A DNA stretch of 64,000 nt from a virus: positions 1 to 64,000 of IMG/VR virus record IMGVR_UViG_3300027747_002969, one strand, 5' to 3'. Both the position numbers and the translations under genes were made by a program. The stretch's first letter is position 1, and each line of letters starts with the position of its first letter. Shown here one piece after another: positions 3,654 to 43,521 of the stretch. Under the pieces are notes generated by a model. It worked only from the letters and a program-made list of their open reading frames with translations. It was not told where the DNA came from and made no database searches.

Positions 3654-3728
3654 CAAGTGGCCTCAGTCTTTCATTTAACTATTTATCTTCGAATCATCAC
3701 TAGATATAGCAGTAATAAATACACTATA

Positions 3729-6590: not shown

Positions 6591-6593
6591 AAG

Positions 6594-7322: not shown

Positions 7323-7381
7323 CCTGTCAATCTAACATCCTCTGCCAATGCCGCCGGTAAATATCAGAAAGGAGCAATACC

Positions 7382-8062: not shown

Positions 8063-8063
8063 T

Positions 8064-9773: not shown

Positions 9774-9790
9774 CAAAAGATAAATAACAC

Positions 9791-10360: not shown

Positions 10361-10369
10361 ACTTAGATC

Positions 10370-11522: not shown

Positions 11523-11609
11523 ACGGCACCTCACTCACATTTATTGCTCATTATATTCTCACAAAACAGCACAATCACACAAGATGACAGGATATCGCAG
11601 TATAGTGTC

Positions 11610-12060
11610 TGCGCGGGGAAGGGACGGTCGCCGTCAGGAACCCGAATAAACAGGTGCATCATCCGCCTGACCGGGAAGTATCGGCTGTCCTCGTGGTGAA
11701 AATATCTCCAGCCCGATCCCGGAATACTCAATCAAGATCAGGAATAGATTGTAAAATCATCGCCCCATGTGCTGCATGGGCTACAAATGGATCGCTCTAT
11801 CTACCATTGATAACGATCAAGAACGGCTGAGGTTGATCAGTATTCCTCTGCTGTTTTCCGCTGCTGGACTCTGTCCAGGATGTGCATGTAATGTTGGTAC
11901 CGGGCAACCGCCAACGATCGACAACGATCAAGCATGAAAACTGGTCTGTGGGGACTGCCTGTACGCAGAATTTTCTCACATACATTCTCCCTCGTTTAAA
12001 CGCGGGGGAGATATGGTCTATGGACCCAACCAACCGCAAATGTGTAGGGAAAGCAAAATT
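11610..12060 (+). ncRNA. Candidate large structured non-coding RNA of unknown class
   Basis: No convincing ORF. At least 9 helices with G-U pairs and a GNRA loop. Strand and ends are approximate. Confidence 0.5.
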
Positions 12061-12066
12061 AAGCCA

Positions 12067-12094
12067 TTGACTAGGGATAAAAACATGCTAAATT
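12067..12094 (+). promoter_or_regulatory. Sigma70-like promoter for the ligase
   Basis: TTGACT-N16-TAAATT with TGC just before the -10. Confidence 0.45.
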
Positions 12095-12120
12095 AAATGT
12101 AGTTTATAAGGACCTCTGAG

Positions 12121-28492: not shown

Positions 28493-29226
28493 AAGACTAT
28501 ATCAAAGACCTTACCACCTACGTGACTCCCACGGGGTTTTTTGACAAGATCAAGGTAGCGGCTACTACCAAAGAAATCACAGTTGAAGCCATGGAAAAGG
28601 AAAAGGAAGTGATTCTCAAGGGTCGCTTTACCAAACCTTTGAGCGACCTTACTGGCGAGTTTGGGCTCAGTAATCTTTCACTGCTGCAGACTATCACCGG
28701 CGATCAGCAATTTCCTCATGCCGAAAGCACACTTGCCATCACCTATGAGTCCAAAGCAGCAGAAAAGATCCCAACTGAACTGGCCTATCAAAACAAAAGC
28801 AAAAGCCATATCAACTATCGATTCATGGCCAAACAACTGCTGCCAGACCAGCCCAAGTTTATGGAGCCCAAGTGGGATGTCACAGTAACACCCAGCAAGG
28901 CCAACATACAGCAGTTGACCTGGGCAGCCAATGGTCTTGGTACCTATGAGCAGTATTTCATTCCCAAGATTGTGGATGGAGACCTCATGTTTTTCATCGG
29001 TGAAGACAATGCAGCAACACAGCGCGGTGGGGTAGTATTTGCCAGCGAACGCAGTGAAACATTTGTCAGCGATCACAAATGGAAGATTGCGCAGATACTG
29101 TCGGTTTTGAAATTGGCAGACACCTGTGATTGCGAAATGTCTTTTTCTATCAAAGGTGCTATTCAAATCACCCTCAATACTGGTGTAGGAACCTATCGTT
29201 ATATTTTCCCTGCAAAAGTGCGTTGA
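28483..29226 (+). CDS. Putative sliding clamp (gp45-like)
   Basis: About 247 aa beta-rich protein near the polymerase; GEFGLSNL, INYRFM, YRYIFPA. Confidence 0.65.
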   Translation: MALKDYIKDLTTYVTPTGFFDKIKVAATTKEITVEAMEKEKEVILKGRFTKPLSDLTGEFGLSNLSLLQTITGDQQFPHAESTLAITYESKAAEKIPTELAYQNKSKSHINYRFMAKQLLPDQPKFMEPKWDVTVTPSKANIQQLTWAANGLGTYEQYFIPKIVDGDLMFFIGEDNAATQRGGVVFASERSETFVSDHKWKIAQILSVLKLADTCDCEMSFSIKGAIQITLNTGVGTYRYIFPAKVR

Positions 29227-29233
29227 ACATCTT

Positions 29234-29258
29234 GGAGATCACTGTGACAGTGATCTCC
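29234..29258. terminator. Perfect 11-bp inverted repeat after the clamp gene
   Basis: ggagatcactg-tga-cagtgatctcc; no clear U-tract. Confidence 0.45.
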
Positions 29259-29267
29259 TATAGATTT

Positions 29268-29275
29268 TATAAATA
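29268..29275 (+). promoter_or_regulatory. T4-type late promoter TATAAATA
   Basis: Exact consensus 6 nt before ATG 29282. The TAAATA core recurs at 3716, 7358, 9781, 15452, 16463, 20535, 21985, 45229, 54459, 55075 (+) and 1896, 2784, 3680, 20471, 52370, 59315 (-). Confidence 0.7.
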
Positions 29276-29281
29276 ACCAAG

Positions 29282-30040
29282 ATGAGATATCAAAAGCACT
29301 TCCGCACTATCGTAATCAGCGATTTGCATATGGGCAGCGCTGGTTGCAAAGCAAAATTACTTAATGATTTCCTCAAACATCATTCATCGGATTGGCTCTA
29401 TCTCAACGGCGACATATTTGACTGTTGGAAAATAGAACAAAACAAGTGGAATTTTACCAAAACACAGGGCAAGGTCCTGCGACGCCTGCTGAAGATCAGT
29501 CTCGGCAACACCAAAGTAGTATATGTGCTGGGCAATCATGATGATTTTTTCCGCAATTTCATACCATATAAGATTAACCTTGGCAAAATACGAGTGGTAA
29601 ACGAATGCTGTCATGTTGGTCTTGATGGTCGCAGATATTTGGTAACGCATGGTGATCTCTTTGACACAGTCAGCAATCTGCATCGCTGGGTCAGCATGTG
29701 CGGAGACAGCGCCTATACATGGCTGCTGCGCATGAATGGAGCGGTGAATTGGCTGCGCGGCCTTTTTGGTCTGAGATACTGGAGCCTCAGCCACTATCTC
29801 AAAACCAAGGTCAAACGTGCTGTGGATTTTATCTATCGGTTCGAAGAAACTCTAGCCAACTATGCACAGCACAAAAACTATGATGGGGTTATTGTTGGAC
29901 ACATACATGTCCCCGAAATCAAACTCATCAATGATATTGTCTACATGAATTCCGGCGACTGGGTTGAAACCTGCAGCGCATTGGTAGAAGACGAAGAGGG
30001 CAATTGGATGGTGTTGTATTGGTGCTCAGTGGAAGATTGA
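29282..30040 (+). CDS. Calcineurin-like metallophosphoesterase (LpxH-like)
   Basis: SDLH, GDIFD, GNHD, HGD, GHIH, NSGDW. Confidence 0.88.
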   Translation: MRYQKHFRTIVISDLHMGSAGCKAKLLNDFLKHHSSDWLYLNGDIFDCWKIEQNKWNFTKTQGKVLRRLLKISLGNTKVVYVLGNHDDFFRNFIPYKINLGKIRVVNECCHVGLDGRRYLVTHGDLFDTVSNLHRWVSMCGDSAYTWLLRMNGAVNWLRGLFGLRYWSLSHYLKTKVKRAVDFIYRFEETLANYAQHKNYDGVIVGHIHVPEIKLINDIVYMNSGDWVETCSALVEDEEGNWMVLYWCSVED

Positions 30041-30203
30041 TGTTCATTGGTTGATCTTATCGTTTAACTAGACTATCATCAGCTGAAAACAAGAGGTGAT
30101 GTATGGCAATTGAACCAACCACAACGATCTATTCAACTAACAATGACAAAGTCATCTGCAAATATGCCGCTGCACTGAATGATATCTTGTTTGGAGGTCG
30201 GTG

Positions 30204-30581
30204 ATGAATAAAAAGACATTTGTCTATTGTACCTTTCAAAAGGAAGGATACCATTTCTTTCCCGGAGCCGACACTGATCCTCAATATGCCACAGGTGATG
30301 TATACGATGTCAGTGCACTGGGATTTAGGCACATGCACTACTTCAACTTCAAAGTCTGGGTTGAGGTGACTCATGCAAACCGTCAAATTGAGTTTATACA
30401 GCTGCGTAGATGGATTGAGCGTTTATATTCAACTGGTGCTCTCGAACTTGACAATCAAAGTTGCGAAATGATGAGTGACGCATTGTATGAAAAAATCTCC
30501 GCTAGATATCCCGGAATGGAGATCAGGATAGATATCAGCGAAGAAGGTATCAACGGTTCTTACACTGAATATCAACCGTGA
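30204..30581 (+). CDS. QueD-paralog T-fold protein (DpdL-like)
   Basis: LGFRHMHYF (LxxxHxHxF), IEFIQL, SCEMM, ISEEG.NG. Confidence 0.55.
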   Translation: MNKKTFVYCTFQKEGYHFFPGADTDPQYATGDVYDVSALGFRHMHYFNFKVWVEVTHANRQIEFIQLRRWIERLYSTGALELDNQSCEMMSDALYEKISARYPGMEIRIDISEEGINGSYTEYQP

Positions 30582-30798
30582 TATTCAGTGTGAAAGACAA
30601 TCTCGCGCGAAAGCCCGCGAGAGTTTGCTGCGCGGTAGTTCACCATGTCCGACATACAACTGCTGTCACAATATGACCAAACTGTTGTCATCCTGATAGC
30701 AGCTGATATAATACAACAACGATTATCCGGCGAGTATTTCTTGCACAGACGCTGTGAAACGTTGGTGAGTTGAGATTACAAATCACAAGAGAAATAAA

Positions 30799-31914
30799 AT
30801 GACAACAATCTACATCGTGCCAATTGAACCCGTAACCACGCGCTATACAAAACAATGGTATGACCATATTCCAATTCTGTTAGACCGTGCAGGTGCAGAA
30901 CATGTGGTGATCGTAGACGGCGAAGCAGTGTCAGATACGCCAACTCCTGGGGCGTTTTTAGATTTTGCCGCAACAAATCAATGGAAAAGTAGCCAATTGA
31001 TGATCATTGCACAGTTGTTCCGCGAGCAAAAGATACAAGATGGCGACAAGTTCCTCTATACAGACGCATGGAACCCAACATGTATACAACTGCGCTACAT
31101 GGCAGAATTGTTTGGCAAAAAGATTGAAATACATGGTCTTTGGCATGCTGGTAGCTACGATTCGCAAGATTTTCTAGGGAGATTGATCGGTGACAAGCCC
31201 TGGATACGCAATGCCGAGACCAGCATGTTCTACACCTATGACACCAATTGGTTTGCTACGAGATTTCACAGTAATCTTTTTCTGCGTGAAATGTTTGATG
31301 TTGAGATTTTTTTCCGCAAGGATGAAACTGACGAATGGGTTCATCATGCCATAGGGGCTGAACGCCGTAGAATCAAGATCACAGGTTGGCCCATGGATTA
31401 TCTCGTTGATGCACTGAAACCCTACAGCAATCTACAAAAGAAGCAGCAGATCTGTTTCCCACATCGTATTGCACCAGAAAAGCAGTTGGAAATTTTCAAA
31501 GACCTGTCGTTGGTCATGCCCGAGTACAACTGGGTAGTTTGCCAGAATACACCATTGACCAAACATGAATACCATACCATACTTGGTGAGAGCAAGGTTG
31601 TATTTTCAGCCGGTCTACAAGAAACCCTAGGTATTTCTGCATGCGCTGAGGCATCACTGTGTAATGCTATACCATATTGTCCAGACAGACTCAGCTACAG
31701 TGAGATATTCTCAAATCATAAAGAGTTTTTATATCCATCAGAATGGACTGAAAACTGGGAAGGTTATCTTCGACACAGATCAAAGTTGGTAGATCAAATT
31801 AGATCTATCATGAATGGATATGATCAGATGTTGCCAATTATAAAAGATTATAATCAACATACAGTTTCTAAATACTTTAGTGCAGATCCGTTGGTCACTG
31901 CATTGATAGGGTAA
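30799..31914 (+). CDS. GT-B fold glycosyltransferase
   Basis: FPHRIAPEKQ, QETLGISACEA, PDRLSYSE (GT4-like ExxG..xxEA). Confidence 0.75.
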   Translation: MTTIYIVPIEPVTTRYTKQWYDHIPILLDRAGAEHVVIVDGEAVSDTPTPGAFLDFAATNQWKSSQLMIIAQLFREQKIQDGDKFLYTDAWNPTCIQLRYMAELFGKKIEIHGLWHAGSYDSQDFLGRLIGDKPWIRNAETSMFYTYDTNWFATRFHSNLFLREMFDVEIFFRKDETDEWVHHAIGAERRRIKITGWPMDYLVDALKPYSNLQKKQQICFPHRIAPEKQLEIFKDLSLVMPEYNWVVCQNTPLTKHEYHTILGESKVVFSAGLQETLGISACAEASLCNAIPYCPDRLSYSEIFSNHKEFLYPSEWTENWEGYLRHRSKLVDQIRSIMNGYDQMLPIIKDYNQHTVSKYFSADPLVTALIG

Positions 31915-32205
31915 TAGGTGATAACCTCAAGCGAATAAGACAACTTTTGGATTATGACCAAAATCCTGCATGGAAAGCCGTGGGTAGATTTGATTTGCCA
32001 AAGGCATGTCTAGCGATTTGGTGATCAACCTGCCCTAGCAGTAGATTCGTCACAGCTTTTTAATTGTAGAAACCACAGTGCAGCAGCGGAACATTTGCAA
32101 CGCAGTGGATACCATTTGCTCACCCAATATCGCAGCAACGTGGTGTTTGCGCCAAAGACTGTCTAATAGAAAATTGCAGAACCTGTTGTTCTGCAACTAA
32201 ACTGT

Positions 32206-32850
32206 ATGATAGGAGAACTCTCGCACATGTTACCTGCTGTATTCAAAGACCTAGACCGCGGTCTGTTGTGGAAATTGGTCATAATCCAATCACTGCTGAT
32301 CACCATCAGCAACTATTTGGTACACTATAAATTCGCCATACTGGGATGGCCCTTGGCCTGGAGCATATGGTGCACACCACTGTTCATGGTGATCACTGAT
32401 CTGGTCACACGCCTAGTGGGCAAACCACTTGCACGAGCTGTGCTGCTGGCCACTCTGGTGCCGGGCATGCTGGGCACTGCGGTTGGTGCTTGGCTCTATG
32501 GCAGCGGCCTAGTTGATGGCACTCGCCTCACGGTAGCCAGTGGCATCTGTTATCTGCTGCCCATGCTGTTGGATGTCTGGATCTTTGCCTGGCTGCGCCA
32601 TCGTATATCTGCGTGGTATGTAGCACCTGCTGTCAGCGGTGTTGTGACCACCATATTCATGACATATCTGTTTTGGGGTGTGGCATTTGCAGGCGGCAGC
32701 GATCCCTATCTCAGCAGTCATTGGTATGTGTTGGCCACCAGTCAGCTGATCATCAAGAACCTGCTGAATCTCCTGCTGCTGCTGCCGCTGTATGGTGCAC
32801 TGCTGACTTGGCTCACACGCAAATCAGGTGCTAGACATGCAGGAGTATAA
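32206..32850 (+). CDS. yhhQ: YhhQ/VUT-family queuosine-precursor (preQ0/preQ1) transporter-like protein
   Basis: ISNYLV, TDLVTRLVGKPLAR, R..VAS..CY, LDVWIFAWLR..WYVAPAVS; multiple TM helices. Confidence 0.7.
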   Translation: MIGELSHMLPAVFKDLDRGLLWKLVIIQSLLITISNYLVHYKFAILGWPLAWSIWCTPLFMVITDLVTRLVGKPLARAVLLATLVPGMLGTAVGAWLYGSGLVDGTRLTVASGICYLLPMLLDVWIFAWLRHRISAWYVAPAVSGVVTTIFMTYLFWGVAFAGGSDPYLSSHWYVLATSQLIIKNLLNLLLLLPLYGALLTWLTRKSGARHAGV

Positions 32851-33628
32851 TCGATTGTGGGATACCTACAGCAAAAACTGGGATCTGCTGAAAGCACCCA
32901 TGCGGCCCACCACTGCTGTGATCCGTGTGCTGCAGCAGCAGATAGGCGAAGGTCATGTGCTGCAGTTGGGCTGCACTCCTGAGATACATGCGGCGTTTGA
33001 TCACATCACTGCTGTGGACAGAGATCCCAACATGATTGCCACTGTGTGGCCAGGCAACACTGCCACCAAACAGGTGATCAATCAAGACTGGATGCACATG
33101 ATTTGGCCCCACAACACATTTACAGGCATAGTCAGTGACTGTGGTGTGGTCATGCTTGGTACCTTGCAACGACAACAAGAGTTTCTGTCTCGCTGCTGGG
33201 ATTGGCTTGCACCTGGGGGTACCTATGCGCAACGCTACTTTGAGCGCCCCATGGTCAACATCACCTTGGAAGAACTACTGGCTGACATCAGCGGACCAGC
33301 CAAGATCAACTTTCATGCTTTCAAATGGAAGATGGGCATGTATCTGGCAGGTCAACACGGTGCGGCCACTGCCAGTGTGCAGATATTAGATCTGTGGCGT
33401 GAGATCAGCGGCGATCGAGAGGCAGTGTTGGATCGCACAGGTTGGTCTGCTGAAGCGGTGCAGACAGTGGATTTTTATCAGACCAGTGGGCAGGTAGTGA
33501 CATTTGCCAATCGTGAGGAATATGCCAGCACTATACCTGCAGGTGCAGTTGATGTGGAATGGCTCTATACAACAGATTATGATTTTGCAGAACACTGTCC
33601 TATCATGCGCTGGAGAAAGCCGCTGTGA
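32828..33628 (+). CDS. Class I SAM-dependent methyltransferase-like protein
   Basis: VLQLGCTPE, AVDRDPNM, DW, LAPGGT. Confidence 0.7.
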   Translation: MLDMQEYNRLWDTYSKNWDLLKAPMRPTTAVIRVLQQQIGEGHVLQLGCTPEIHAAFDHITAVDRDPNMIATVWPGNTATKQVINQDWMHMIWPHNTFTGIVSDCGVVMLGTLQRQQEFLSRCWDWLAPGGTYAQRYFERPMVNITLEELLADISGPAKINFHAFKWKMGMYLAGQHGAATASVQILDLWREISGDREAVLDRTGWSAEAVQTVDFYQTSGQVVTFANREEYASTIPAGAVDVEWLYTTDYDFAEHCPIMRWRKPL

Positions 33629-34965
33629 ACCTAGAAGGTGTGACATGGCCCAAGATGTATACTGGGCCTAACCTAGTGCTTATGGCGCTGCTGGCCGAGT
33701 TGGACCGCACAATGTGGTTAGATCCTGAAGTCATAGCTGCTGAGCAGTTCAAACAACTGCGTTTGATAATTGCTCATCACACGGCATACAGCCCGCAGTT
33801 TGCTGCTAGAATGCTGGCAGCTGGATTGACAGCTGCTGACATCACTGACGCGGCCAGCCTTCGCCGCCTGCCGCCCTTGCGACGCCTAGACATACAGCGT
33901 GCAGGCGATGGTTTTTACAGTAAACACATACCGCAGAGCCATGGACAACCGGGTGAGACTCGCACCAGTGGTAGCACAGGTGAACCTGTGAAGATACGCA
34001 AGACACAGATTGATGCACTGTTTTGGACTGCACATGCTATAAGAGATCATCTCTGGGCCCGTCGCGATTTTCGCCACCGGTTGCTGAGCATACGTGCTGA
34101 CATCTGGAAGTACGGCGAGTCGCCCAACTGGGGACAGCCCATAGCAGACATCTGGCAGACTGGTCGCAGTATAGGCATGCCGGCTACCTATGATGTACGA
34201 GAACAGTTGCGGATCATCAAAGAATTCCAGCCTGGCATACTGCTGATCTATCCCAACAATCTCAGCATTATCTTGGACGAAATGGCAGCAGATGGCAGCG
34301 ACTTTGGATTTATCAAGCATGTCAAGACCATCGGTGAGACTGTGCACCAGTGGCAGCGTGACAAGACTCGTGCTGTTCTTGGAGTAAAGATAGAAGACAA
34401 CTACAGCAGCAATGAAATGGGCTGCATGGCCATGCAGTGTCCAGACACCGACAACTACCATGTCATGACAGAAACTGTGATAGTAGAGATCATCAATGAT
34501 CAGGATCAGCCCTGTGTACCAGGTGAAGTGGGACGTTTGGTGGTCACTGACCTACACAACCATGCCAGCCCATTGATACGCTATGACATAGGCGACTGGG
34601 CAGAAGCGGGTGAACCCTGCAGATGTGGACGAGGGTTGCCAACTATCAAGCGATTTGTTGGCAGAGAACACAGCATACTTTCACGGCCCGACGGCACTCG
34701 CATCTGGCCCATATTCTATGGCGCCAAAATGAATGACATTGCACCGGTGAGACAGTACCAATTCATACAGCACACACTGACCGGCATGGAATTTCGCTGC
34801 TTTACAGAACAGCCGCTGACTGCAGCGCAGCGTGAAGGACTCATAGCATTAGTACAAGAGGCTCTGGGGTGGCCCTATGATTTAGATCTCATAGAATATC
34901 GCCAGCCTCTGCCAACCACAGCTCGTGGAAAATTTCAAGAATATATCAACCGAATGGCAACATGA
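33625..34965 (+). CDS. Phenylacetate-CoA ligase family (PaaK/CapK-like) adenylate-forming enzyme
   Basis: TSGSTGEP, YSSNE, GRLVVTDL, PLIRYDIGD, CRCGR, GR, GKF. Confidence 0.88.
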   Translation: MNLEGVTWPKMYTGPNLVLMALLAELDRTMWLDPEVIAAEQFKQLRLIIAHHTAYSPQFAARMLAAGLTAADITDAASLRRLPPLRRLDIQRAGDGFYSKHIPQSHGQPGETRTSGSTGEPVKIRKTQIDALFWTAHAIRDHLWARRDFRHRLLSIRADIWKYGESPNWGQPIADIWQTGRSIGMPATYDVREQLRIIKEFQPGILLIYPNNLSIILDEMAADGSDFGFIKHVKTIGETVHQWQRDKTRAVLGVKIEDNYSSNEMGCMAMQCPDTDNYHVMTETVIVEIINDQDQPCVPGEVGRLVVTDLHNHASPLIRYDIGDWAEAGEPCRCGRGLPTIKRFVGREHSILSRPDGTRIWPIFYGAKMNDIAPVRQYQFIQHTLTGMEFRCFTEQPLTAAQREGLIALVQEALGWPYDLDLIEYRQPLPTTARGKFQEYINRMAT

Positions 34966-35140
34966 AAGTGATTTCCTGCATAACAGTTTGGCCATCGCCC
35001 AGTTGCGTAGTTGGACCAAAATAACCTCTGTTATGTGAAAATCTGACATCCTTGTTGTGATGCGTCTGCATCTAACGCGGACATAACTTGATCTTTCAAT
35101 GATCCAGCATCATACTGATGCTAGATAGGAATTATCAACT

Positions 35141-36775
35141 ATGAATCCATTTGAAAACCAGCGCGGTTTAAACAAACAAGCAGTAAACCTTGCAAAATCG
35201 CAAAAAGACTATGCAGTATTTCTACCGTCAATTTCGGCGATCTATGCCAAGATCGTCAGTATGCCGGAATACAAGATACGTGAAAGGCTGCCCGATGGAC
35301 TCAATAATGATAGATTAGACTTAAATTTCCTCAACAAAGACAATAGTTTATTCTACTATCCTGCTGCACTTTATAGTGCAGGCCATGCATATCTAGACGT
35401 TAATGAAAGCAATGTTTACGAAAGCATGGTGCAAAAGCGAGATCGTTCAAGAACGGTGATAATAGGTGACAGTGGCGGATTCCAGATTGCCACAGGCGTA
35501 TTGAAATGGCCATGGACACCAAAGAAAAATCAAGATGATTTAGAATGGGCACGTGACAAGGACAAACTGCGCATGTCGATTTTAAGATGGTTAGAAGCCA
35601 CTGCAGATTATTCGTCTGTGCTCGACGTGCCAACTTACGGTCTTGTTAAATTTGGATTTGATCCTGTCACAGGAGAAAGTCTGCATCCCGGAATGAAGAC
35701 CTTTCGCGACTGTCTCAATGTCAGCCTTGAAAATTATGATTTCTTTATACGAAACAGGGTTGAAGGTGCTACCAAGTTTCTAAACGTGTTGCAGGGTCGC
35801 AACCAAGAAGAAGGCGATGTTTGGTGGGATGCTGTGAAAGACCTGCCGTTTGAAACCTGGGCTTTTTCTAACGTTCAGGCATCAAACTTTTCCATCAACC
35901 TGCGGCGTTTGATCATCATGCGTGATGGCAAGTATTTAGATGGACGCGATTGGCTACACTATCTCGGCAATGGTAAGATCAAAGCCGGTTGTGCATTGAC
36001 CACGCTGCAGCGTGCCATTAGACAGCATATCAATTCCAACATTACACTGAGTTTTGATGCAGCATCGCCGTTTGTGATGGTGGCTAAAGGACAGATGTAT
36101 CATGGGTATGAACTCAGCCACAACAGCATGCGATTCAAAGGTGGCAGCATAGTCGATGACAAACTTTTAAAAAACAGTCAACTGCTGTTGAACGACTGGA
36201 TTTCTGCTAATGATCACAAGGGTTTTATAATTCCCAGTGCCATTGGTTCTCGCTGCACTGTTGGAGATATTTGTGTGCGAGGCTACGAGGATCTTGCCTA
36301 TAAGAAGGTAGCATGGACCAAAAAGGAATTGCAAACTGATGCATATCTCAACAGTCAAGAAGGTCGTGCCGGAGACAAGTTCAAATGGAGTAATGATTAC
36401 AAAGAGTATCTATCACATAGTCGGGATCACGGCGGGCTGTTTGATTTCAGCAGCAGCAAATTTGAACTAGATCATGAGAAATATCAAGTGAAATGGCCCA
36501 GCAGCATGGATGGTTTTTCCTATATCATTGCTATGAACCACAATGTTGAGTTGCATATACGTGCAATTCAAGAAGCCTGTGCAGCACAGGATCTACCTCT
36601 GGCAGCAGCAACAGCACGAGTCACTCCAGATCTGCTGGAATTTAAAGATCTCTGCGGCGAAATATTGACCAGCCAACGACCTATGGATATTATCAACAAG
36701 CATGAGAAACTGCTGCGCAACATTACTGGCATGGATGCGGATAACCAAGTCAACATGGAAGTTGGAGACTTTTGA
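35141..36775 (+). CDS. TGT-fold deazaguanine transglycosylase (DpdA-like)
   Basis: GDSGGFQI, VLDVP, LNVLQG, HYLG, SFDAASP; clustered with folE/queD/queE. Confidence 0.7.
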   Translation: MNPFENQRGLNKQAVNLAKSQKDYAVFLPSISAIYAKIVSMPEYKIRERLPDGLNNDRLDLNFLNKDNSLFYYPAALYSAGHAYLDVNESNVYESMVQKRDRSRTVIIGDSGGFQIATGVLKWPWTPKKNQDDLEWARDKDKLRMSILRWLEATADYSSVLDVPTYGLVKFGFDPVTGESLHPGMKTFRDCLNVSLENYDFFIRNRVEGATKFLNVLQGRNQEEGDVWWDAVKDLPFETWAFSNVQASNFSINLRRLIIMRDGKYLDGRDWLHYLGNGKIKAGCALTTLQRAIRQHINSNITLSFDAASPFVMVAKGQMYHGYELSHNSMRFKGGSIVDDKLLKNSQLLLNDWISANDHKGFIIPSAIGSRCTVGDICVRGYEDLAYKKVAWTKKELQTDAYLNSQEGRAGDKFKWSNDYKEYLSHSRDHGGLFDFSSSKFELDHEKYQVKWPSSMDGFSYIIAMNHNVELHIRAIQEACAAQDLPLAAATARVTPDLLEFKDLCGEILTSQRPMDIINKHEKLLRNITGMDADNQVNMEVGDF

Positions 36776-37302
36776 TGAAACGTGACTATAAAGATGGCAT
36801 CAAGAATGATGTGGTGTTTTTTACCGGAACAGAAGTGGAGCACACGCCTGCATGGGGTCTCAAAACACTGTTTGTAGTTGGTGTTCAACCCATTGAACGT
36901 GTTGCTGCACTGTTTGATCAGCACCGGTGTGAACACATCTATCTTGGTGCCAATCAAAGTTTTGACACAGAAGGTTGGCTAGGTAACATCACTAACAGTG
37001 ATGCCTGGGATAATATGATCAACAGCGTGTTGACAATTGGTTGTTTGACCACGTTGGATTTTGATCTACGGTACGTGGACTGGGTCTGCGAAGGTGGGTA
37101 TGCTGACAATGACCTCTTTATTCCGCAGATATCAGTCAAAATACCTTATCTAAACCAACTGGGTTATAATGCCACGTTGAAAATAGATGATCGTGGTTTT
37201 CGTGCAACCAACCCCGGCGTGTGGTGCCATAGCCTTCATGATCTCACTTCTCGCAGGGAGTTTACAGCTTGGAACCAATACAGTAAGGATCAACCAATAT
37301 GA
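36775..37302 (+). CDS. Hypothetical protein coupled to the DpdA-like gene
   Basis: TGATG stop/start overlap; GTEVEHTP, HIYLGANQSF, NPGVWCH. Confidence 0.65.
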   Translation: MKRDYKDGIKNDVVFFTGTEVEHTPAWGLKTLFVVGVQPIERVAALFDQHRCEHIYLGANQSFDTEGWLGNITNSDAWDNMINSVLTIGCLTTLDFDLRYVDWVCEGGYADNDLFIPQISVKIPYLNQLGYNATLKIDDRGFRATNPGVWCHSLHDLTSRREFTAWNQYSKDQPI

Positions 37303-37733
37303 ATCAACAGACCATAGACTATTTGCAGGATTACAGAAAAAAGACCGCAGATTTAGCCCTGCTAAAATCACAAATACATGTTTTAGAACAGGACCTGATG
37401 AACAAAAATCATCAGGTACAGGATATGTTATATGAAATCGACAGCATGCGCAAGATCATTACTTTGATGATAGACAATGACTGGGATCCAGTAGAGACCA
37501 AACTGCGCAGCGAACCGTCTGAGAGACAAAAAAATCACTGGGGATATGCCAGCGACTACAGTGAACTTTCTCATCTTGCTCATAAGAGCATTAACAACAA
37601 AAATATATACTACAATCATCAAGGGTGTCACTACAGTGGTGCAACCGGGGCAATCGGAGCGCTGGGGTCTAGCAGTGTGCCCAATCCCAGTTATCAAAGT
37701 ACAACCATTATTGCAAAACAAATTACACCTTAA
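37299..37733 (+). CDS. Hypothetical coiled-coil protein
   Basis: ATGA overlap with the upstream gene. Confidence 0.55.
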   Translation: MNQQTIDYLQDYRKKTADLALLKSQIHVLEQDLMNKNHQVQDMLYEIDSMRKIITLMIDNDWDPVETKLRSEPSERQKNHWGYASDYSELSHLAHKSINNKNIYYNHQGCHYSGATGAIGALGSSSVPNPSYQSTTIIAKQITP

Positions 37734-37788
37734 TTGTGTTGTTAAAAACTCCCAGTCTAAACTCTAGTGCAATTGCAAGGACAATATC

Positions 37789-38460
37789 ATGACTGCTACC
37801 AGCATTAAAATACGCAATCGAATTCAAACCAATGGGGGTAAGTTTTTCTGCAACGACAATATCTCTGAATACATGGAACCCGGAGAATTTGACCTGTTGA
37901 TGACAGAAGTCGAGTCTAAGATGCAGGGTGTGTTGGAAAGCCTGGTAATTGACACTGAGAACGATCACAACACACGAGAAACTGCACACAGAGTAGCCAA
38001 GATGTTTTGTACGGAGGTGTTTTCTGGCAGATATCTTCCTCAACCCAAGATCACAGCATTTCCCAACGCCACAGCATATGATGAAGTCTATGTGACTGGA
38101 CCAATTTCTGTAAGATCGACATGTGCTCACCACCTACAGAGCATCAAGGGCCAGTGTTATATTGGTGTGTTCCCAGGCAAGAACGTTATTGGTCTTAGCA
38201 AGTTTAATCGCATGGTAGATTGGATTGCCAGCCGTCCACAGATTCAGGAAGAAATGACCATACAGATTGCCGATCTTGTGGAACGTGAAACTGAAGCCAA
38301 AGGTGTTGCTGTGCTGCTGCAGGCAGAGCACGGATGCATGACCATGCGAGGAGTTAAAGAGCATGATTCTGACATGACCACCAGTGTGATGCGCGGAGTG
38401 TTTCGAGATACTCCGCACATCAAAAAGGAGTTTTTTGACATACTTGCTAGGATGAAATAG
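37789..38460 (+). CDS. folE: GTP cyclohydrolase I
   Basis: TAHRVAKM, STCAHH, GLSKFNR, RPQIQE, HGCMTMRGV. Confidence 0.95.
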   Translation: MTATSIKIRNRIQTNGGKFFCNDNISEYMEPGEFDLLMTEVESKMQGVLESLVIDTENDHNTRETAHRVAKMFCTEVFSGRYLPQPKITAFPNATAYDEVYVTGPISVRSTCAHHLQSIKGQCYIGVFPGKNVIGLSKFNRMVDWIASRPQIQEEMTIQIADLVERETEAKGVAVLLQAEHGCMTMRGVKEHDSDMTTSVMRGVFRDTPHIKKEFFDILARMK

Positions 38461-38511
38461 TGAACTGGCATGAAATGGGTATCACATGTGACAATAGGAA
38501 AGGTAATATAA

Positions 38512-39033
38512 ATGGTTAATCAACCAATCAGTTATAAATTTGTGAGCACCAAAGAATACATAGATGAATTTCCATGTGCCTATCGACAGTATTTGGCAGA
38601 TGACAAACCGGGGAATATTCCTGGTTGTAATAAGATACATGGTTACAGTTTCAGTATAAAATTTTATTTTGGTACCAATTCACTAGATGCACGAAATTGG
38701 GTAGCTGATTATGGGGCACTGCGACCTCTCAAAGATTTTCTGAAAGATCTGTTTGATCATACCTTGTTGGTCAGTGAAACAGACCCTCATTTGGATTGGT
38801 ATCAAGAAGCCATGCGCAGAGGAATCGCTAAACTTACCATTCTCCCCAAATTGGGATGTGAAGGACTGGCAGATATGCTTTACAAATATGTCAACGCTGT
38901 GTTCATACCCGAGCAATGGGGAAGTAACGAATCTGAAAGGATTTGGTGTTACAAAGTGTCTGTTCGAGAAACTCAATCAAACCTAGCATTTCGTGTTGGT
39001 CATAGAGAATGGGACGACGATTTATTTTCTTGA
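38512..39033 (+). CDS. queD: 6-carboxytetrahydropterin synthase
   Basis: CNKIHGY, WVADYG, FDHTLL, GCEGLA, VRET. Confidence 0.85.
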   Translation: MVNQPISYKFVSTKEYIDEFPCAYRQYLADDKPGNIPGCNKIHGYSFSIKFYFGTNSLDARNWVADYGALRPLKDFLKDLFDHTLLVSETDPHLDWYQEAMRRGIAKLTILPKLGCEGLADMLYKYVNAVFIPEQWGSNESERIWCYKVSVRETQSNLAFRVGHREWDDDLFS

Positions 39034-39152
39034 ACATGTTTCACGGTGTTGACGTTTGTAGTTTCCAAACAAGTTGACCACAGTGAACGATGTAGAATTT
39101 CATTGATAGCTGCGGTCGAAAATACAGTTAACCAACATAGGAAAAATGAAAA

Positions 39153-39344
39153 ATGTCTGATAGCAAGTTAGTAGAATCTGATCAAATGGCCACCGTTTAC
39201 CAAGGTCGAGTGGCCAAAGAAGACGGCGAACTGGTGTTGGTATTTCCAGCCAGCATGCTGTTGGACCTTGGTTGGCAAGAAGGTGACAGTGTTGTCTGGG
39301 ATATTCGACCAGACGCAGTGGTAGTCAAAAAGGTCAATGACTGA
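39153..39344 (+). CDS. AbrB/MazE-like small DNA-binding protein
   Basis: LVLVFP..ML..LGWQEGD.VVW. Confidence 0.65.
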   Translation: MSDSKLVESDQMATVYQGRVAKEDGELVLVFPASMLLDLGWQEGDSVVWDIRPDAVVVKKVND

Positions 39345-39388
39345 ATAGGCCAAAATCGATATCTAATGTAGTGTGAATCAGCAACAGG

Positions 39389-39922
39389 ATGAGACATACC
39401 ATGTCAGTAACCAGCAATCCGTATATTACATTCAACATATCATCTGCCAACACTGGCTCATTTACAGTAAATGGAGGTTGGAGTCATAACACATCTATTG
39501 CTGGTCACAGTGGCCCCATAGTGAATCCCGGTGCAATAACTGTGGCAGGTGCAATGACCAGCGGTTTGAACAGTTCTATGCTGGGCAGTTATAATGTCAA
39601 CAGCTGTCAGAACGGTTTAAGTATACCAATCGGCAACAACGTCAGATTAACCATTAGTCCAGACGGCCAAATAGAATGGTCTGGACCTGCAAGCAAGGCT
39701 GCAGAGCATTTTTTAACGTCTCTTGGACATGTGATCGATTGCAGCACGTCTGGCAAGCGTGCACTGGCCAAAAGTTATCGCCTTGCAATTGAACGCTGTT
39801 TGCGCCAGGCCAAACGCATGAGCCATGAAGACTTCATAGTCATGCTGGAGAAAGAAGTTGCCACAAGGCAGAGCAAGGCTGTGTGGATGACCCTGTGTGA
39901 GGACGAGGCTGTAGATGAATAA
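39389..39922 (+). CDS. Hypothetical protein
   Basis: ORF in the operon. Confidence 0.55.
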   Translation: MRHTMSVTSNPYITFNISSANTGSFTVNGGWSHNTSIAGHSGPIVNPGAITVAGAMTSGLNSSMLGSYNVNSCQNGLSIPIGNNVRLTISPDGQIEWSGPASKAAEHFLTSLGHVIDCSTSGKRALAKSYRLAIERCLRQAKRMSHEDFIVMLEKEVATRQSKAVWMTLCEDEAVDE

Positions 39923-40172
39923 TGACAGCAAACCATTTCTACTGCTATGGGATCATCTCAGCAGTGAAGACATGCAAGAACGAATAGACTGGTTGAGGAA
40001 AAATCTCACAGCAGGAATTGATTGGGGATTTTGTGCGAATCCCAAGATTTGCGTTCTGAAGACCAGTAATGCTAACCTGCTCTATCGCCTGCGTTGGTTT
40101 GAACCCGGACAACAGAAAGAAATTGATTGGCATCCTACATTTGAAAATAGTGACATTAATCGAAATGAGTGA
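39915..40172 (+). CDS. Hypothetical protein
   Basis: Overlaps the upstream stop; NANLLYRLRW motif. Confidence 0.55.
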   Translation: MNNDSKPFLLLWDHLSSEDMQERIDWLRKNLTAGIDWGFCANPKICVLKTSNANLLYRLRWFEPGQQKEIDWHPTFENSDINRNE

Positions 40173-40277
40173 ACTACCGCGCAAAAACTTAATTCCTGCT
40201 GTGTGGTACAGGAATTTTCTAGTTTGACAATCTAGATGAACCGCAACACACTTAAAAAGTAGATTGAAAGAAATGAC

Positions 40278-41159
40278 ATGTTTGGACATAATTCTATAGT
40301 TGGGCAGTCTTATTTTAAAGACGCTGGAGATAACCTATTCGTAACAAGTATATTTGGAGTGACTCTGCAAGGCGAAGGTCCGTACCGAGGCGAGCCAGCA
40401 GTTTTTGTTAGACTGGCCAAATGTCAATTGGCCTGCAGTTTCTGTGATACCTTTTTTGATGACGGCGATTGGATGACAGTAGATCAAATTGATCAACGCA
40501 TACAAACTGTGATTGAACAGTATTTTAATGGATCAATTCCACTATGGGCCAGTGAACTACCCAGTTCAGAGTTTCAGGCTGCTAAACCAAGAGATATGGT
40601 GTTGGTAGTCACAGGCGGCGAACCCATGCTGCAGAAAAACATCGGTCCATTTCTCAAGCATATGAGCAAGAAGTTTGTCAAGACTCAGATCGAAAGCAAC
40701 GGATTGCTGGTTCAAGACATTCCGGAATCCACAACGCTGGTGGTAAGTCCAAAGTGCAATGAAAAGAACGGACAACCAACACAGTATCTTACACCAAATC
40801 CCAAGATGCTTGAACGTGCAAATTGTTTGAAGTTTGTAATGAATGCTGATCTCAATTCACCTTATGGGTCTGTTCCAATCTGGGCGCATGAGTGGCGCGA
40901 CAAAACAGGTAACCCTGTGTTTGTCAGTCCAATGAATATCTACAATGAAGAACCGCAGAAAAGCAAGCGTCTGCGCGCTGAAAAGAATCAGATCTCACTT
41001 GAAGAACGCAGTACTGTAGATGAAGTGATTTCTTGGTGGACACCCGGACTGTTAAACATGGCAGAAAACCAACGCAATCACGAGTATGCTGCTAGATACG
41101 CTGTCAGCAATGGGTTTGTATTCAATATGCAACTGCATTTATTTGGTAATCTAGCCTAA
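40278..41159 (+). CDS. queE: 7-carboxy-7-deazaguanine synthase (radical SAM)
   Basis: TLQGEG, FVRLAKCQLACSFCDT, TGGEP, IESNG, VVSPK, QLH. Confidence 0.9.
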   Translation: MFGHNSIVGQSYFKDAGDNLFVTSIFGVTLQGEGPYRGEPAVFVRLAKCQLACSFCDTFFDDGDWMTVDQIDQRIQTVIEQYFNGSIPLWASELPSSEFQAAKPRDMVLVVTGGEPMLQKNIGPFLKHMSKKFVKTQIESNGLLVQDIPESTTLVVSPKCNEKNGQPTQYLTPNPKMLERANCLKFVMNADLNSPYGSVPIWAHEWRDKTGNPVFVSPMNIYNEEPQKSKRLRAEKNQISLEERSTVDEVISWWTPGLLNMAENQRNHEYAARYAVSNGFVFNMQLHLFGNLA

Positions 41160-41872
41160 TGACATACTCGCTGTATCTTATATCAAACAAACCTCAATAT
41201 CACAATGTCATACAATCAGGACTTGGCAGCCAACATCTGGAATATTTTGATGGTAGCAATGTGGCAAATTTCAGCCAATTGGTCAACACCTGTGTTGAAT
41301 ATGCCAACACAGAAACAGTAATTCTGATGAGTGACAAGGTGCGTCCAACACAAGAGCATGTGGATAAAACACTGAGCCTGCTGGAACAAGGCTATGCGTT
41401 TGTTGGTCTACAACTTTTTAGATTTTTTGCGTTTAAAAAACAGTTGTTCAGACAAATTGGCTGTATGGACGAAAGATATGTTGGTACTGGTCATGAGGAC
41501 TATGACCTATATGTGCGTTTGATCGAACACAATCTACCATTTTGGATAGAAGAATCTGTACCCTGGGATCATAGACCTTCTTCTTGGGCTGACAGTCAGG
41601 GAGTTTATCGGGGTTATACACATTGGTGTACCAAATGGCTACACCACTGGGTTGAAGGTCAACCATTGCCTGTATGTCTCGAACGGACTATGGCTGAGGA
41701 ATCATATGGCTATGATTTTGGCCCAGAGCAGCCGGTAAGTTTTTTATCGGGACGAGACTGTTTCTATACTACCAACTGGCCGCATGTTGGGGCTTTTCTA
41801 GCTATGGATATAGTATCTGGCACTAACCTACGCTATAATAGGATCCAACCCAGTCTGCAGATTGGAAAATAA
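41159..41872 (+). CDS. GT-A fold glycosyltransferase-like protein
   Basis: F..IGCMDERY.G.GHED.D. Confidence 0.6.
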   Translation: MTYSLYLISNKPQYHNVIQSGLGSQHLEYFDGSNVANFSQLVNTCVEYANTETVILMSDKVRPTQEHVDKTLSLLEQGYAFVGLQLFRFFAFKKQLFRQIGCMDERYVGTGHEDYDLYVRLIEHNLPFWIEESVPWDHRPSSWADSQGVYRGYTHWCTKWLHHWVEGQPLPVCLERTMAEESYGYDFGPEQPVSFLSGRDCFYTTNWPHVGAFLAMDIVSGTNLRYNRIQPSLQIGK

Positions 41873-41873
41873 A

Positions 41874-42458
41874 ATGAGAAAACCACTAATACCATTTTGG
41901 ATGATGCCCGGCTCATGGGGTCTCAGGGGCAAGACTCGTGAGATAGCACAGGCGGAATATGAACTAAGGCAAGGCGATCTAGAGAAAAAACTGCTGGAGA
42001 TAAACTATCGAGATGATCCTAAAGAATTGGCTCGCAGACAGTTGGAACTCAGTCGCAAACTCCGTGAAATATCTGATATAGTCTATGATCAACACAAATT
42101 ACGTTTGGAAATAGATGACCAAACCACATTGGAATTGGCCGAACTTGACCTGCTGCTGAAGCATGAAAAATTAACCAAATTGGAATATGATCGCAAGCGT
42201 GCAGATATTCTCAAGGAACCCTGGGTCAGTATGCCTGTGATCAATTGGGATCCATTGACCAGTAGTCGAACTTATTTTCAATTGGAATATAACGAGTATT
42301 TCTATCCGCATCTTTTGGCCAACGGCTATGAAGGCGAAGAAGATACAGTGATCAACAACTGGTTGAATGACATCTGCATCAGCATTACCGAAGAGATTAA
42401 TGGCATGGAAGCAGATCTCATCACTCCCACAAGGCGTGCAGATCCCCTAGACAATTGA
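41874..42458 (+). CDS. Hypothetical protein
   Basis: Long ORF in the operon. Confidence 0.6.
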   Translation: MRKPLIPFWMMPGSWGLRGKTREIAQAEYELRQGDLEKKLLEINYRDDPKELARRQLELSRKLREISDIVYDQHKLRLEIDDQTTLELAELDLLLKHEKLTKLEYDRKRADILKEPWVSMPVINWDPLTSSRTYFQLEYNEYFYPHLLANGYEGEEDTVINNWLNDICISITEEINGMEADLITPTRRADPLDN

Positions 42459-42462
42459 CATC

Positions 42463-42490
42463 TTGACAGTCATCCTGGTTGCCGTATAAT
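42463..42490 (+). promoter_or_regulatory. Consensus sigma70 promoter
   Basis: TTGACA-N16-TATAAT. Confidence 0.75.
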
Positions 42491-42519
42491 AAAACTGCAG
42501 CAACCTAAACGGATTAAAA

Positions 42520-43521
42520 ATGTCACAGACCTACATTGTCATCGACACTCAAAATTTATTTCTCAGGGTTCGACATGGAGTCCGTGCTCCTGATGCTGAA
42601 CAGCAGTTGGCTCTGGCACTGCATATCATATTCAACAGCATTAAAAAAGTTTGGAATCAATTTGATGCTGCACACACGGTGTTTTGTTTAGAAGGTCGCA
42701 GTTGGCGCAAGGATATTTATGCACCATACAAGGCCAATCGCAAGGCAGCAGCAATCAAACGTACTCCTCGTGAGGTTGAAGAAGACACGATATTTTTTGA
42801 AGTGATGGACGAATTCATCAATTTCATTAAGAATCAAACCAACTGCACAGTACTGCGCCATGCTGAAGCAGAAGCAGATGACATGATTGCACGTTGGATT
42901 GGTCTACATCCGCAGGACTCGCACATCATTATCAGCAGTGACAGTGATTTCCAACAGTTAGTGGCCGACAATGTGATGATCTTCAACGGTATATCCGGCT
43001 TGCTCTATACCAAACTTGGCATCTATGACAAGGACGGCAAGATTGCTAAAAACAAGCATGGAGAAGAATTGCCAGTGCCTAACCCCGAATGGCTGCTGTT
43101 TGAAAAATGCATGCGCGGTGATGACAGTGACAATGTCATGAGCGCTTTCCCAGGTGTACGCAGCAAGAAACTCCAGGAGGCTTATGAGGATCGCAACAAC
43201 AGGGGCTTTGCTTGGAATAATCTCATGCTCAGCAAATGGAGTGATCATGAAGGTGTTGAACATCGTGTGAGAGATGATTTCGAACGCAATAAACTGCTGA
43301 TTGATCTCAGCATGCAGCCAGCAGATCTTGTGGAAAAGTTTGATGAGACCATACGTGCTAGCATTGTTACTGAAATACGCAAGCAGGTTGGATTGTCTTT
43401 GATCAAATTCTGCAACAGACATGGTCTAATAAAGATAGAAAAAAACAGCGGAGAATACAGCAGTTGTTTCAGTGCGGTCTATACTGGTAATCTCCTGCAG
43501 ACCCAAGATCAAGGAGAATAG
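42520..43521 (+). CDS. T4 RNase H-like 5'-3' exonuclease/flap endonuclease
   Basis: SWRK...YKANR, EADD, SSDSDF.QL, GDDSDNV. Confidence 0.9.
   Translation: MSQTYIVIDTQNLFLRVRHGVRAPDAEQQLALALHIIFNSIKKVWNQFDAAHTVFCLEGRSWRKDIYAPYKANRKAAAIKRTPREVEEDTIFFEVMDEFINFIKNQTNCTVLRHAEAEADDMIARWIGLHPQDSHIIISSDSDFQQLVADNVMIFNGISGLLYTKLGIYDKDGKIAKNKHGEELPVPNPEWLLFEKCMRGDDSDNVMSAFPGVRSKKLQEAYEDRNNRGFAWNNLMLSKWSDHEGVEHRVRDDFERNKLLIDLSMQPADLVEKFDETIRASIVTEIRKQVGLSLIKFCNRHGLIKIEKNSGEYSSCFSAVYTGNLLQTQDQGE

Follow-up and report, generated by a model that had tools for sequence, protein, structure and literature searches.

Phage-encoded homologues of the Escherichia coli permease YhhQ have been reported (PMC6884629), and members of the YhhQ/QPTR family are described in PMC11130926 as differing in specificity. 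Phage enzymes that tailor 7-deazaguanine, DpdM (a preQ1 methyltransferase), DpdN and DpdL, are described in PMC10516641 as encoded next to DpdA. A locus with features of both was found on IMG/VR virus record IMGVR_UViG_3300027747_002969 (84,333 bp, GC 44.2%), of which the first 64 kb (64,000 nucleotides, termed the window) was analysed. This record was estimated by CheckV to represent approximately 20% of a genome and is a fragment of a giant phage. Here, three overlapping open reading frames (ORFs), all on the + strand at positions 32206-34965, encode a YhhQ-type permease, a protein with a methyltransferase fold and a ligase of the CapK/PaaK type (collectively, the trio), and they interrupt a cluster of genes related to 7-deazaguanine synthesis directly upstream of a DpdA-like gene. 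The trio was found to be a recent arrival in this phage, coming from a phage lineage of higher GC content. It is probably a self-contained, mobile operon for import and tailoring of a small molecule, which was placed by chance in a permissive spacer and lies outside the deazaguanine pathway.

The likeness to DpdM, DpdN and DpdL is one of setting, with enzyme genes of unknown function beside a DpdA-type gene and those for FolE, QueD and QueE, and of a methyltransferase fold in one product, whereas the trio does not travel with the cluster beside which it lies (0/80 related loci). DpdM of phage phiSM possesses a CxxxCxxCC metal motif, which some of its homologues lack according to the description in PMC10516641. 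This motif, as published for DpdM, was not visible in the alignment of the trio methyltransferase. Likeness was also found to the auxiliary cassettes of large T4-like and jumbo phages, in that the trio is a discrete multi-gene block of foreign GC content with no integrase and with sharp boundaries at intergenic hairpins, and in that tRNAs, peroxiredoxin, nitroreductase and ClpX lie beside it in other carriers. It differs from these in its content of a permease, a methyltransferase fold and a CapK-like ligase, undescribed in the literature searched; no such trio was found by title or abstract in literature on 7-deazaguanine, phages and YhhQ, or on COG1738 and phenylacetate. None of the proteins falls outside known superfamilies, and it is nothing unusual for large phages to exchange cassettes; the combination of the three, and the pairing of the methyltransferase-fold protein with a CapK-like ligase, appear to be uncharacterised.

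Recent insertion of a GC-rich cassette

The permease gene (32206-32850, 214 aa) overlaps that of the methyltransferase-fold protein (32828-33628, 266 aa) by 23 nt, or by 14 nt if the latter begins at an in-frame ATG at 32837, which is its likelier start. This second gene in turn overlaps the ligase gene (33625-34965, 446 aa) by 4 nt. The GC content of these genes (52.7%, 51.6% and 51.5%, respectively) is above that of 18 neighbouring genes (42-46%). As a block of 2,760 bp, the trio has a GC content of 51.85% (z ~4), exceeding all 1,521 equally long, non-overlapping windows taken from the 84,333-bp record (mean 44.0%, standard deviation 2.0, maximum 50.9%). Gaps without coding capacity lie on its left (291 bp, 31915-32205) and right (175 bp, 34966-35140). 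The initial annotation, made from the sequence alone, had described three overlapping genes, GC-richer by eye, between non-coding gaps, and it is borne out by these measurements.

Positions 32198-34974 were found to share 92.6% nucleotide identity, ungapped over 2,777 bases, with positions 2242-5018 of L083, a metagenomic phage contig with a GC content of 53.3%. Beyond the coding region the match takes in just 8 bp ahead of the first ATG and 9 bp past the final stop codon, and the sequence on either side is unrelated. By DNA homology, the transferred cassette is thus a 2,777-bp segment on the + strand (32198-34974), bordered by a left spacer at 31915-32197 and a right spacer at 34975-35140, the start of the latter being set by the end of the homology to L083. 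A hairpin of 11 pairs (32172-32198) stands at the left junction and forms the 3' end of the left spacer; no such hairpin pattern was found elsewhere in the window, although this says little, as the loop length searched was wrong. Neither direct repeats flanking the trio, nor a repeat common to both spacers, nor an integrase with the cassette was found, and promoter-like sites were at chance level (5 seen, 5.2 expected). A scan of metagenome contigs gave 11 loci with close relatives of the ligase, and the loci other than L083 showed 75-80% identity over the same span. Ratios of dN/dS calculated against L083 were 0.18 for the permease, 0.10 for the methyltransferase and 0.09 for the ligase, showing that all three genes have been under purifying selection since the split from this contig.

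Relatives of the window that lack the cassette were identified by way of the DpdA-like protein, for which IMG/VR holds at least 583 relatives; the best 80 of these loci (L125-L204) were examined. No homologue of the permease, the methyltransferase or the ligase was present in any of the 80. Among the 30 closest loci, the GT-like (glycosyltransferase-like) gene directly abuts the DpdA-like gene, the distance between them being approximately 70 bp in L126, a locus collinear with the window. In relatives, this ~70-bp spacer represents the landing site of the cassette. Nor did any of the 16 large related records examined, among which three are rated complete by CheckV (364, 453 and 519 kb), contain a relative of the ligase, and the cultured Pseudomonas phage PA5oct possesses the DpdA-like, GT-like and QueE cluster with no trio. 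Comparison of positions 30000-37500 with 50,697 phage records using blastn gave no match.

Discordant GC, sharp boundaries and high identity to another contig are also what would be seen if a GC-rich fragment of another phage had been joined to this contig during assembly. However, contigs from sequencing runs X3, X4 and X5, belonging to two other studies (P3 and P4, neither flagged as the origin of this record), cross both junctions with 0-4 differing letters (left junction in records 2, 7 and 16; right junction in records 6, 14 and 22), and a second IMG/VR record (L002) contains the ligase-to-DpdA-like junction. As contigs from other studies bridge both junctions, the insertion is not an assembly chimera; together with L002 they effectively refute an artefact, the chance of which is negligible.

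Families and folds of the three proteins

The permease, of the YhhQ/QPTR family (COG1738), was assigned to PF02592 (48.2 bits, cut-off 27.2, 2e-12) and TIGR00697 (69.5 bits, cut-off 50.95), and also to phrog_4899. Both of the former families are shared with YhhQ of E. coli, which is of similar length, and the YhhQ call of the initial annotation holds. In contrast to E. coli YhhQ, the phage permease is coupled to two enzymes and falls under the cut-off of the E. coli-type equivalog for preQ0/preQ1 transporters (NF008406; 117.5 bits, cut-off 252).

The second protein matched Methyltransf_11 above the cut-off (23.8 bits, cut-off 21.2, 7e-5). Its AlphaFold model was of high confidence (predicted local distance difference test (pLDDT) score 94.5), and the top matches of this model to the PDB using Foldseek were all small-molecule methyltransferases dependent on S-adenosylmethionine (SAM), present as structures bound to SAM or S-adenosylhomocysteine (E 1e-10 to 1e-8, probability 1.00). 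The domain match, model and structural matches agree on a class I fold, as the initial annotation had it. The glycine-rich motif I of class I methyltransferases is of the GxGxG type; at this position the window protein reads LQLGCTPE and the consensus of 25 aligned homologues LLLGVTPE. Residues invariant among the 25 sequences are WPG, the D of GDGS, PDR and D..Y, and the alignment holds a single nearly invariant cysteine. A role in a defence system was considered and dropped, with PADLOC giving one generic methyltransferase-domain match (mad2, 1.9e-07) to this protein and none to the other eight proteins searched.

Sequence matches of the ligase to the PDB were phenylacetate-CoA ligases, PaaK and PaaK-like (E 4e-16 to 2.5e-11), including a NatL2-type 'PaaK-like ligase' and AjiA1, so that the PaaK-like ligase named in the initial annotation was confirmed at this level. 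With structures of PaaK, PaaK-like and CapK-like proteins (PDB 2y27, 4r1l and 9s3l; NatL2, 6siw; AjiA1, 6wuq) it shares the core of the adenylate-forming (ANL) ligases and the TSGSTGEP, YSSxE and GK motifs. Invariant columns of the alignment comprise TSGSTGEP, YSSxE, CxCGR and a C-terminal GK, the residues T114, S115, G116, G119, E120, P121, Y260, S261, S262, E264, G435 and K436 being the same in all 17 ligase sequences; these were taken to represent the ANL phosphate-binding loop, the YSSxE-type motif and the C-terminal catalytic lysine. The scores of the ligase against the NCBIfam families DVU_1553, FlxY and PaaK were all far under their cut-offs (for example, TIGR02155, 48.4 against 646.3; NF041878, 49.6 against 700), and it also scored under the gathering score of PF00501 (AMP-binding; 22.9 against 29.9). 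Since its scores lie far under the cut-offs of PaaK and of every other named NCBIfam equivalog, the protein is classed as PaaK-like and not as PaaK. The CapK_C domain (PF27533) is precomputed on many homologues of the ligase, and in the Atlas clusters closest to it 44-59% of members have this domain. Unlike PaaK and its kin, the phage ligase belongs to a family of its own, with 449 relatives among species genomes, and is usually paired with a gene for a methyltransferase fold.

From these families a course of action can be proposed. The permease would import a small molecule, the ligase would adenylate a carboxyl group and transfer the acyl moiety to an acceptor, either a thiol or an amine, and the methyltransferase-fold partner would methylate the same metabolite or the product. 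That the three proteins serve one metabolite, the order of their reactions and their independence from deazaguanine are all inferred. The substrate need not be a 7-deazaguanine, while 7-carboxy-7-deazaguanine (CDG) would be an unlikely one; the position beside dpdA and que genes would most simply be an accident of where non-essential DNA can insert.

The enzyme pair in bacteria and the trio in other phages

Relatives of the ligase numbered 449 in a scan in which each prokaryotic species was represented by one genome, and the best 80 loci were examined. Ligases at these loci share 39-48% identity with that of the window and derive mostly from Alphaproteobacteria. A homologue of the methyltransferase was present at 55 of the 80 loci, and in 51 it was located directly upstream on the same strand. 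By contrast, no YhhQ was detected within 7 kb of the ligase at any of these 80 loci, using blastp and a profile of six phage YhhQs, nor were homologues of FolE, QueD or QueE found at them using blastp with the phage proteins. Neighbours of the bacterial pair vary and include glutathione peroxidase, porin, Crp, short-chain dehydrogenase/reductase (SDR), aldo-keto reductase, alcohol dehydrogenase, glyoxalase II and NUDIX proteins. The enzymes of the trio originate in an operon of two genes that is widespread, chiefly in Alphaproteobacteria, and unlinked to deazaguanine genes, and the transport component has been joined to this pair in phages only. The phage permease shares at most 32% identity with any YhhQ of the 50 pair-bearing genomes described below, so that permease and enzyme pair are of separate origin. 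In a quick maximum likelihood tree (SH-aLRT support, midpoint root, 33 of the 80 bacterial loci included), the trio-type phage ligases formed one well-supported clade nested among the bacterial ligases, and transfer was likely from bacteria to phage.

Genes of the que pathway were sought across whole genomes for 50 of the 80 bacterial loci, chosen for their longer contigs. A full-length QueC was present in 27 (29 with two fragmentary or broken copies), leaving 21-23 without a true QueC; QueD was present in 26 and absent from 24, and a member of Vut_1 was found in 24. The genomes with ligases closest to that of the phage (G008-G013) have neither QueC nor QueD, and none of QueC, QueD and Vut_1 was found in a number of others (e.g. 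G015, G037, G048, G049 and G051), all of which are metagenome-assembled genomes. With 21-23 of the 50 without a true QueC and 24 without QueD, many bacteria that carry the pair make no CDG.

This distribution bears on a proposal of the initial annotation, that the ligase activates the carboxyl of CDG to form amides or esters as a new route to hypermodified guanines. Such adenylation could also bypass QueC, and the methyltransferase could produce a methyl ester. Aromatic carboxylates serve PaaK-like ligases as substrates, with esters or amides formed by some of these enzymes independently of CoA, and the 84-kb record contains FolE, QueD and a QueE-like radical SAM gene with QueC not found. QueC, which converts CDG to preQ0 in an ATP-dependent manner, resembles the ligase as a user of ATP that could in principle activate a carboxylate, although it has a PP-loop fold in place of the ANL fold. 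No co-variation was seen between QueC and the enzyme pair, which exists in bacteria with and without QueC. Activation of CDG is weakened further by the absence of the ligase from all 80 related DpdA-like clusters and of que genes from beside all 80 bacterial ligases, by the occurrence of the cassette in phage records without que genes, and by the lack of QueD or a true QueC in nearly half of the 50 pair-bearing genomes, those closest to the phage ligase included. The premise of a missing QueC is itself unsafe, given that the record is ~20% complete and that a divergent QueC-like ORF exists in complete relatives, at a distance of ~80-100 kb from the cluster. Since the enzyme pair thrives in bacteria unable to make CDG, this activity is considered very unlikely.

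The trio as a whole was identified in several further phage settings. Among metagenome loci that reach far enough upstream, the order of YhhQ, methyltransferase and ligase was kept in 8 of 8, and the carrier loci represent one GC-rich (50-53%) phage lineage. In this lineage the trio is preceded by genes for a nitroreductase, a 91-aa and a 432-aa protein, and followed by those for a 216-aa protein, a QueD-like protein, proteins of 414 aa and 611 aa and ClpX. Genes for peroxiredoxin and AhpD-like proteins are found further upstream, and a second paralogue of YhhQ is present at two loci. When the neighbours in this lineage were compared with the proteins of the window using phmmer, the QueD-like gene was the only match; comparison of three of these neighbour proteins with the PDB gave nothing usable.

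More distant copies were found on a 158-kb phage record (L001; YhhQ, methyltransferase and ligase sharing 73%, 44% and 84% identity, respectively, with those of the window) and on two related jumbo-phage fragments of 116 kb and 91 kb (L097 and L098; 34-37%, 37% and 42-44% in the same order). The setting in L001 consists of tRNA genes, HNH endonucleases and a GOLLD RNA, while the trio of L097 and L098 adjoins another methyltransferase and a curli gene set. Gene order and overlaps are retained across this deep divergence. No match to FolE, QueD or the DpdA-like protein was found in these three records (G001-G003; 158, 116 and 91 kb), nor was a match to the tRNA-guanine transglycosylase (TGT) family (PF01702) found in that of L001. 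These results show that the trio moves horizontally among large freshwater phages. On a further contig (L099), the methyltransferase and ligase genes are followed, with an overlap, by a gene for a periplasmic carboxylate-binding receptor of the TctC family in the place of YhhQ (9246-12198). Searching 50,697 phage records with the ligase using tblastn returned four unannotated gut phage records at 25-28% identity.

An Rfam scan of positions 29000-43000 (E <= 1) gave no match, and hence no preQ1 riboswitch at the trio; nor was a riboswitch found in eight trio-bearing loci, where the Rfam matches were solely tRNAs, the GOLLD RNA and a skipping-rope RNA. Where tRNA genes lie close to the trio in other phages, they do not belong to the GUN (queuosine) set, and a link to queuosine in tRNA gained no support from them.

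It could nevertheless be proposed that the trio salvages and tailors a queuosine precursor (preQ0, preQ1 or queuine) for the DpdA-like transglycosylase or for host tRNA. YhhQ would import the precursor, to which the methyltransferase and ligase would add an N-methyl or N-acyl group, or which they would derivatise in some other way. Such salvage would accord with the match above cut-off to TIGR00697, named 'queuosine precursor transporter', with translational coupling of the trio in every phage version seen, with an old and conserved phage-specific fusion, with the QueD-like gene of the related lineage and with insertion directly upstream of the DpdA-like gene in the window; in addition, phage DNA is known from the account in PMC10516641 to contain preQ1 bases that other enzymes have methylated or formylated. 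Against it stand the absence of the trio from all 80 related DpdA-like clusters, the three trio-bearing records (91-158 kb) without FolE, QueD or DpdA-like matches, the pair in metagenome-assembled genomes where neither QueC, QueD nor Vut_1 was found, the lack of a preQ1 riboswitch or other Rfam element at the trio, and the NF008406 score of 117.5 against a cut-off of 252. The initial annotation had offered salvage as a replacement for the missing QueC, which loses force with a record that is ~20% complete, with a QueC-like ORF in complete relatives that have no trio, and with the reported resistance of PA5oct, which also has no trio, to G-dependent restriction enzymes. Salvage for either target is regarded as unlikely, though worth bearing in mind.

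A variant of this is that the trio is a portable kit by which preQ1, preQ0 or CDG released by other microbes would be imported, derivatised to an N-acyl, N-methyl, amide or ester form and then installed in DNA by whichever transglycosylase is resident, here the DpdA-like protein. If true, any phage acquiring the kit would obtain a hypermodified guanine that is new to it, and the bacterial pairs would produce this base as well, either for tRNA or as a metabolite in free form. This is judged to be improbable.

An operon that is independent of the deazaguanine pathway remains the preferred interpretation. The initial annotation had listed an unrelated acquired module as the last of its readings, and the exact boundaries of the cassette, its 92.6% identity to a contig of another lineage, its absence from 80 of 80 relatives and its presence in carriers without que genes support it. 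Co-occurrence with dpdA or que genes, which that annotation had suggested examining, was not observed in the 80 DpdA-like loci, the 16 large related records or the 80 bacterial loci, and homologous trios mostly lie away from que and dpd genes, with the QueD-like gene of one lineage as the exception.

Several observations weigh against this interpretation. In the GC-rich carrier lineage, 9 of the 10 metagenome loci long enough to show it have the QueD-like T-fold gene ~1 kb downstream of the trio, and the phage records without que genes are all fragments (27-55% complete by CheckV; 27-32% for L001, L097 and L098). With the que cluster of the window counted, T-fold or que genes are found near the trio in 2 of 4-5 phage contexts, which may not be due to chance. 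Queuosine precursors are the only characterised substrates of YhhQ/QPTR permeases (PMC11130926 and PMC6884629), and on this account the phage-specific fusion to YhhQ points towards deazapurines. As to the enzymes, the second protein has no glycine-rich motif I of the usual kind, so that its binding of SAM is not certain. A homologue of it is missing from 25 of the 80 bacterial ligase loci, in 3 cases by reason of a contig end, making the pair frequent and not obligatory. Finally, the midpoint root of the quick ligase tree leaves the direction of transfer unproved.

For the deazaguanine field, these comparisons imply that adjacency to dpdA in one phage is no evidence of membership in the pathway. 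In the trio, a family of transporters for which nothing but queuosine precursors is known as substrate is joined to a pair of uncharacterised enzymes with ~450 bacterial relatives, and the substrate of the trio, once found, would annotate all of them.

A number of further features were recorded on the contigs that carry the trio or relatives of its ligase. The contig of L099 also encodes an Mtd-type tropism determinant. Eighteen IMG/VR loci (L100-L117; contigs of 11-476 kb) contain a distant relative of the ligase, mostly of ~350 aa and with 26-32% identity, and no homologue of the methyltransferase or YhhQ was found within 10 kb of it. In the GC-rich trio-bearing lineage, a tRNA gene with the anticodon CTA, reading TAG and labelled tRNA-Pyl by ARAGORN, was found in L084 (2567-2639), L086 (1590-1661) and L090 (1367-1438), adjoining tRNA-Met and, in L090, also tRNA-Ile(TAT); this tRNA may be an amber suppressor. 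The GOLLD RNA of L001 (1-409, 163.6 bits, 5' end cut) lies upstream of the trio and the skipping-rope RNA (9797-9913, 49.8 bits) directly downstream, with five tRNA genes and two HNH endonuclease genes located between the two RNAs. Immediately after the trio of L097 (11389-17050, syntenic in L098) are genes for CsgF, CsgG, two curlin-repeat proteins, a FecR-domain protein and a CHASE2 nucleotide cyclase, a set that looks like a phage-borne curli secretion set.

Flanking genes and the interrupted deazaguanine cluster

The cluster interrupted by the trio spans positions 30201-42458 of the window. Its order, conserved across all 80 of the IMG/VR loci examined (of at least 583), is a small T-fold gene, the GT-like gene, the TGT-fold gene, a 176-aa gene, FolE, QueD, the QueE-like gene, a 198-aa gene and a 5'-3' exonuclease. 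Among the best 80 DpdA-like loci, the T-fold gene was present in 72, the GT-like gene in 66, the 176-aa gene in 63, FolE in 57, QueE in 21 and QueD in 13. Carriers of the conserved cluster include complete phages of 364-519 kb and cultured PA5oct-like Pseudomonas phages. The T-fold, GT-like, DpdA-like, FolE, QueD and QueE genes constitute the conserved pathway in these comparative data, and the cluster of this phage family is complete, and runs, without the trio. DNA of PA5oct resists several restriction enzymes, a pattern that its authors ascribe to modified G as given in PMC12191111, and the cluster thus appears to be active in this cultured member, which has no trio.

Downstream of the cassette, and outside it, the ancestral cluster resumes with the gene for a 544-aa protein (35141-36775, + strand) identified by fold and motif. 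Its model (pLDDT 90.6) was compared with the PDB using Foldseek, and all of the 50 best matches were tRNA-guanine transglycosylases (E ~1e-6, probability 1.00; template modelling scores of 0.43-0.51 when normalised to the target). The motif GDSGGFQ is kept in 24 homologues, with D110, S111, G112, G113 and Q115 invariant, and its DSGGFQ portion was taken to be the catalytic-aspartate motif of TGTs. No Pfam match was obtained for the protein, PF01702 was unmatched in the 84-kb record at E <= 10, and a profile of the 24 homologues found no PDB sequence at E <= 1. The designation 'DpdA-like' seems reasonable at the level of fold. This TGT-fold family, with at least 583 relatives in IMG/VR, is invisible to Pfam and present in PA5oct, offering a tractable route to the suspected modified G; the conserved cluster to which it belongs is the more interesting object of the region than the trio that interrupts it.

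FolE (37789-38460), QueD (38512-39033) and the QueE-like radical SAM gene (40278-41159) follow downstream of the trio. No QueC or TGT-family profile match was found in the 84-kb record. In two complete relatives (G056 and G057), the QueC-like ORF referred to above encodes a divergent protein of 219-240 aa (L205, 1036-1695, - strand; L206, 959-1681, - strand). Both ORFs matched Pfam QueC at 24-25 bits over the C-terminal part only, with a weak Asn_synthase match at the N-terminus, and that of G057 adjoins a radical SAM gene. This phage family may therefore not necessarily be without QueC-type chemistry.

The upstream flank, also part of the ancestral cluster and outside the cassette, is the gene for the 371-aa GT-like protein (30799-31914, + strand). 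The protein has no Pfam match and no PDB sequence match. The initial annotation had placed the trio between a glycosyltransferase and a DpdA-like gene, and the latter name was sustained by the TGT fold and GDSGGFQ motif, whereas 'glycosyltransferase' comes solely from depositors' labels on homologues in 2 of the 12 phage records listed.

A second GT-like gene lies at 41159-41872, and the two raise another explanation, in which a CapK-type ligase amidates the carboxyl of a uronic acid and the methyltransferase decorates the sugar, acting with the neighbouring glycosyltransferases on a glycosylated DNA base or a surface glycan. The CapK_C domain on 44-59% of members of the nearest Atlas clusters, both GT-like genes, an epimerase gene at 23342-24343, a weak cytidylyltransferase-like match at 17844-19388 and a GT4 gene 6 kb downstream of the trio in L097 are consistent with it. 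However, the glycosyltransferases belong to the ancestral cluster and are present without the trio, sampling of neighbour families did not place the bacterial pair in polysaccharide loci, and a permease partner fits badly with an intracellular sugar-nucleotide route. Tailoring of a glycan or sugar acid is accordingly held to be very doubtful.

Other genes of the window were noted apart from the question of the trio. The match at 23342-24343 to an NAD-dependent sugar epimerase/dehydratase is clear (2e-47), while that of the cytidylyltransferase-like domain at 17844-19388 is weak (6e-4), both lying upstream of the split DNA polymerase; together with the two GT-like genes they may point to a supply of sugar nucleotides. 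A second GC-rich stretch was identified at 3000-8500 of the window, reaching 53% in 1.5-kb windows and comprising a 977-aa ORF and genes at 7382-8062 and 8064-9773. In the other phage lineage, the last two have as their homologues a protein with collagen repeats and one with a pro-kumamolisin domain.

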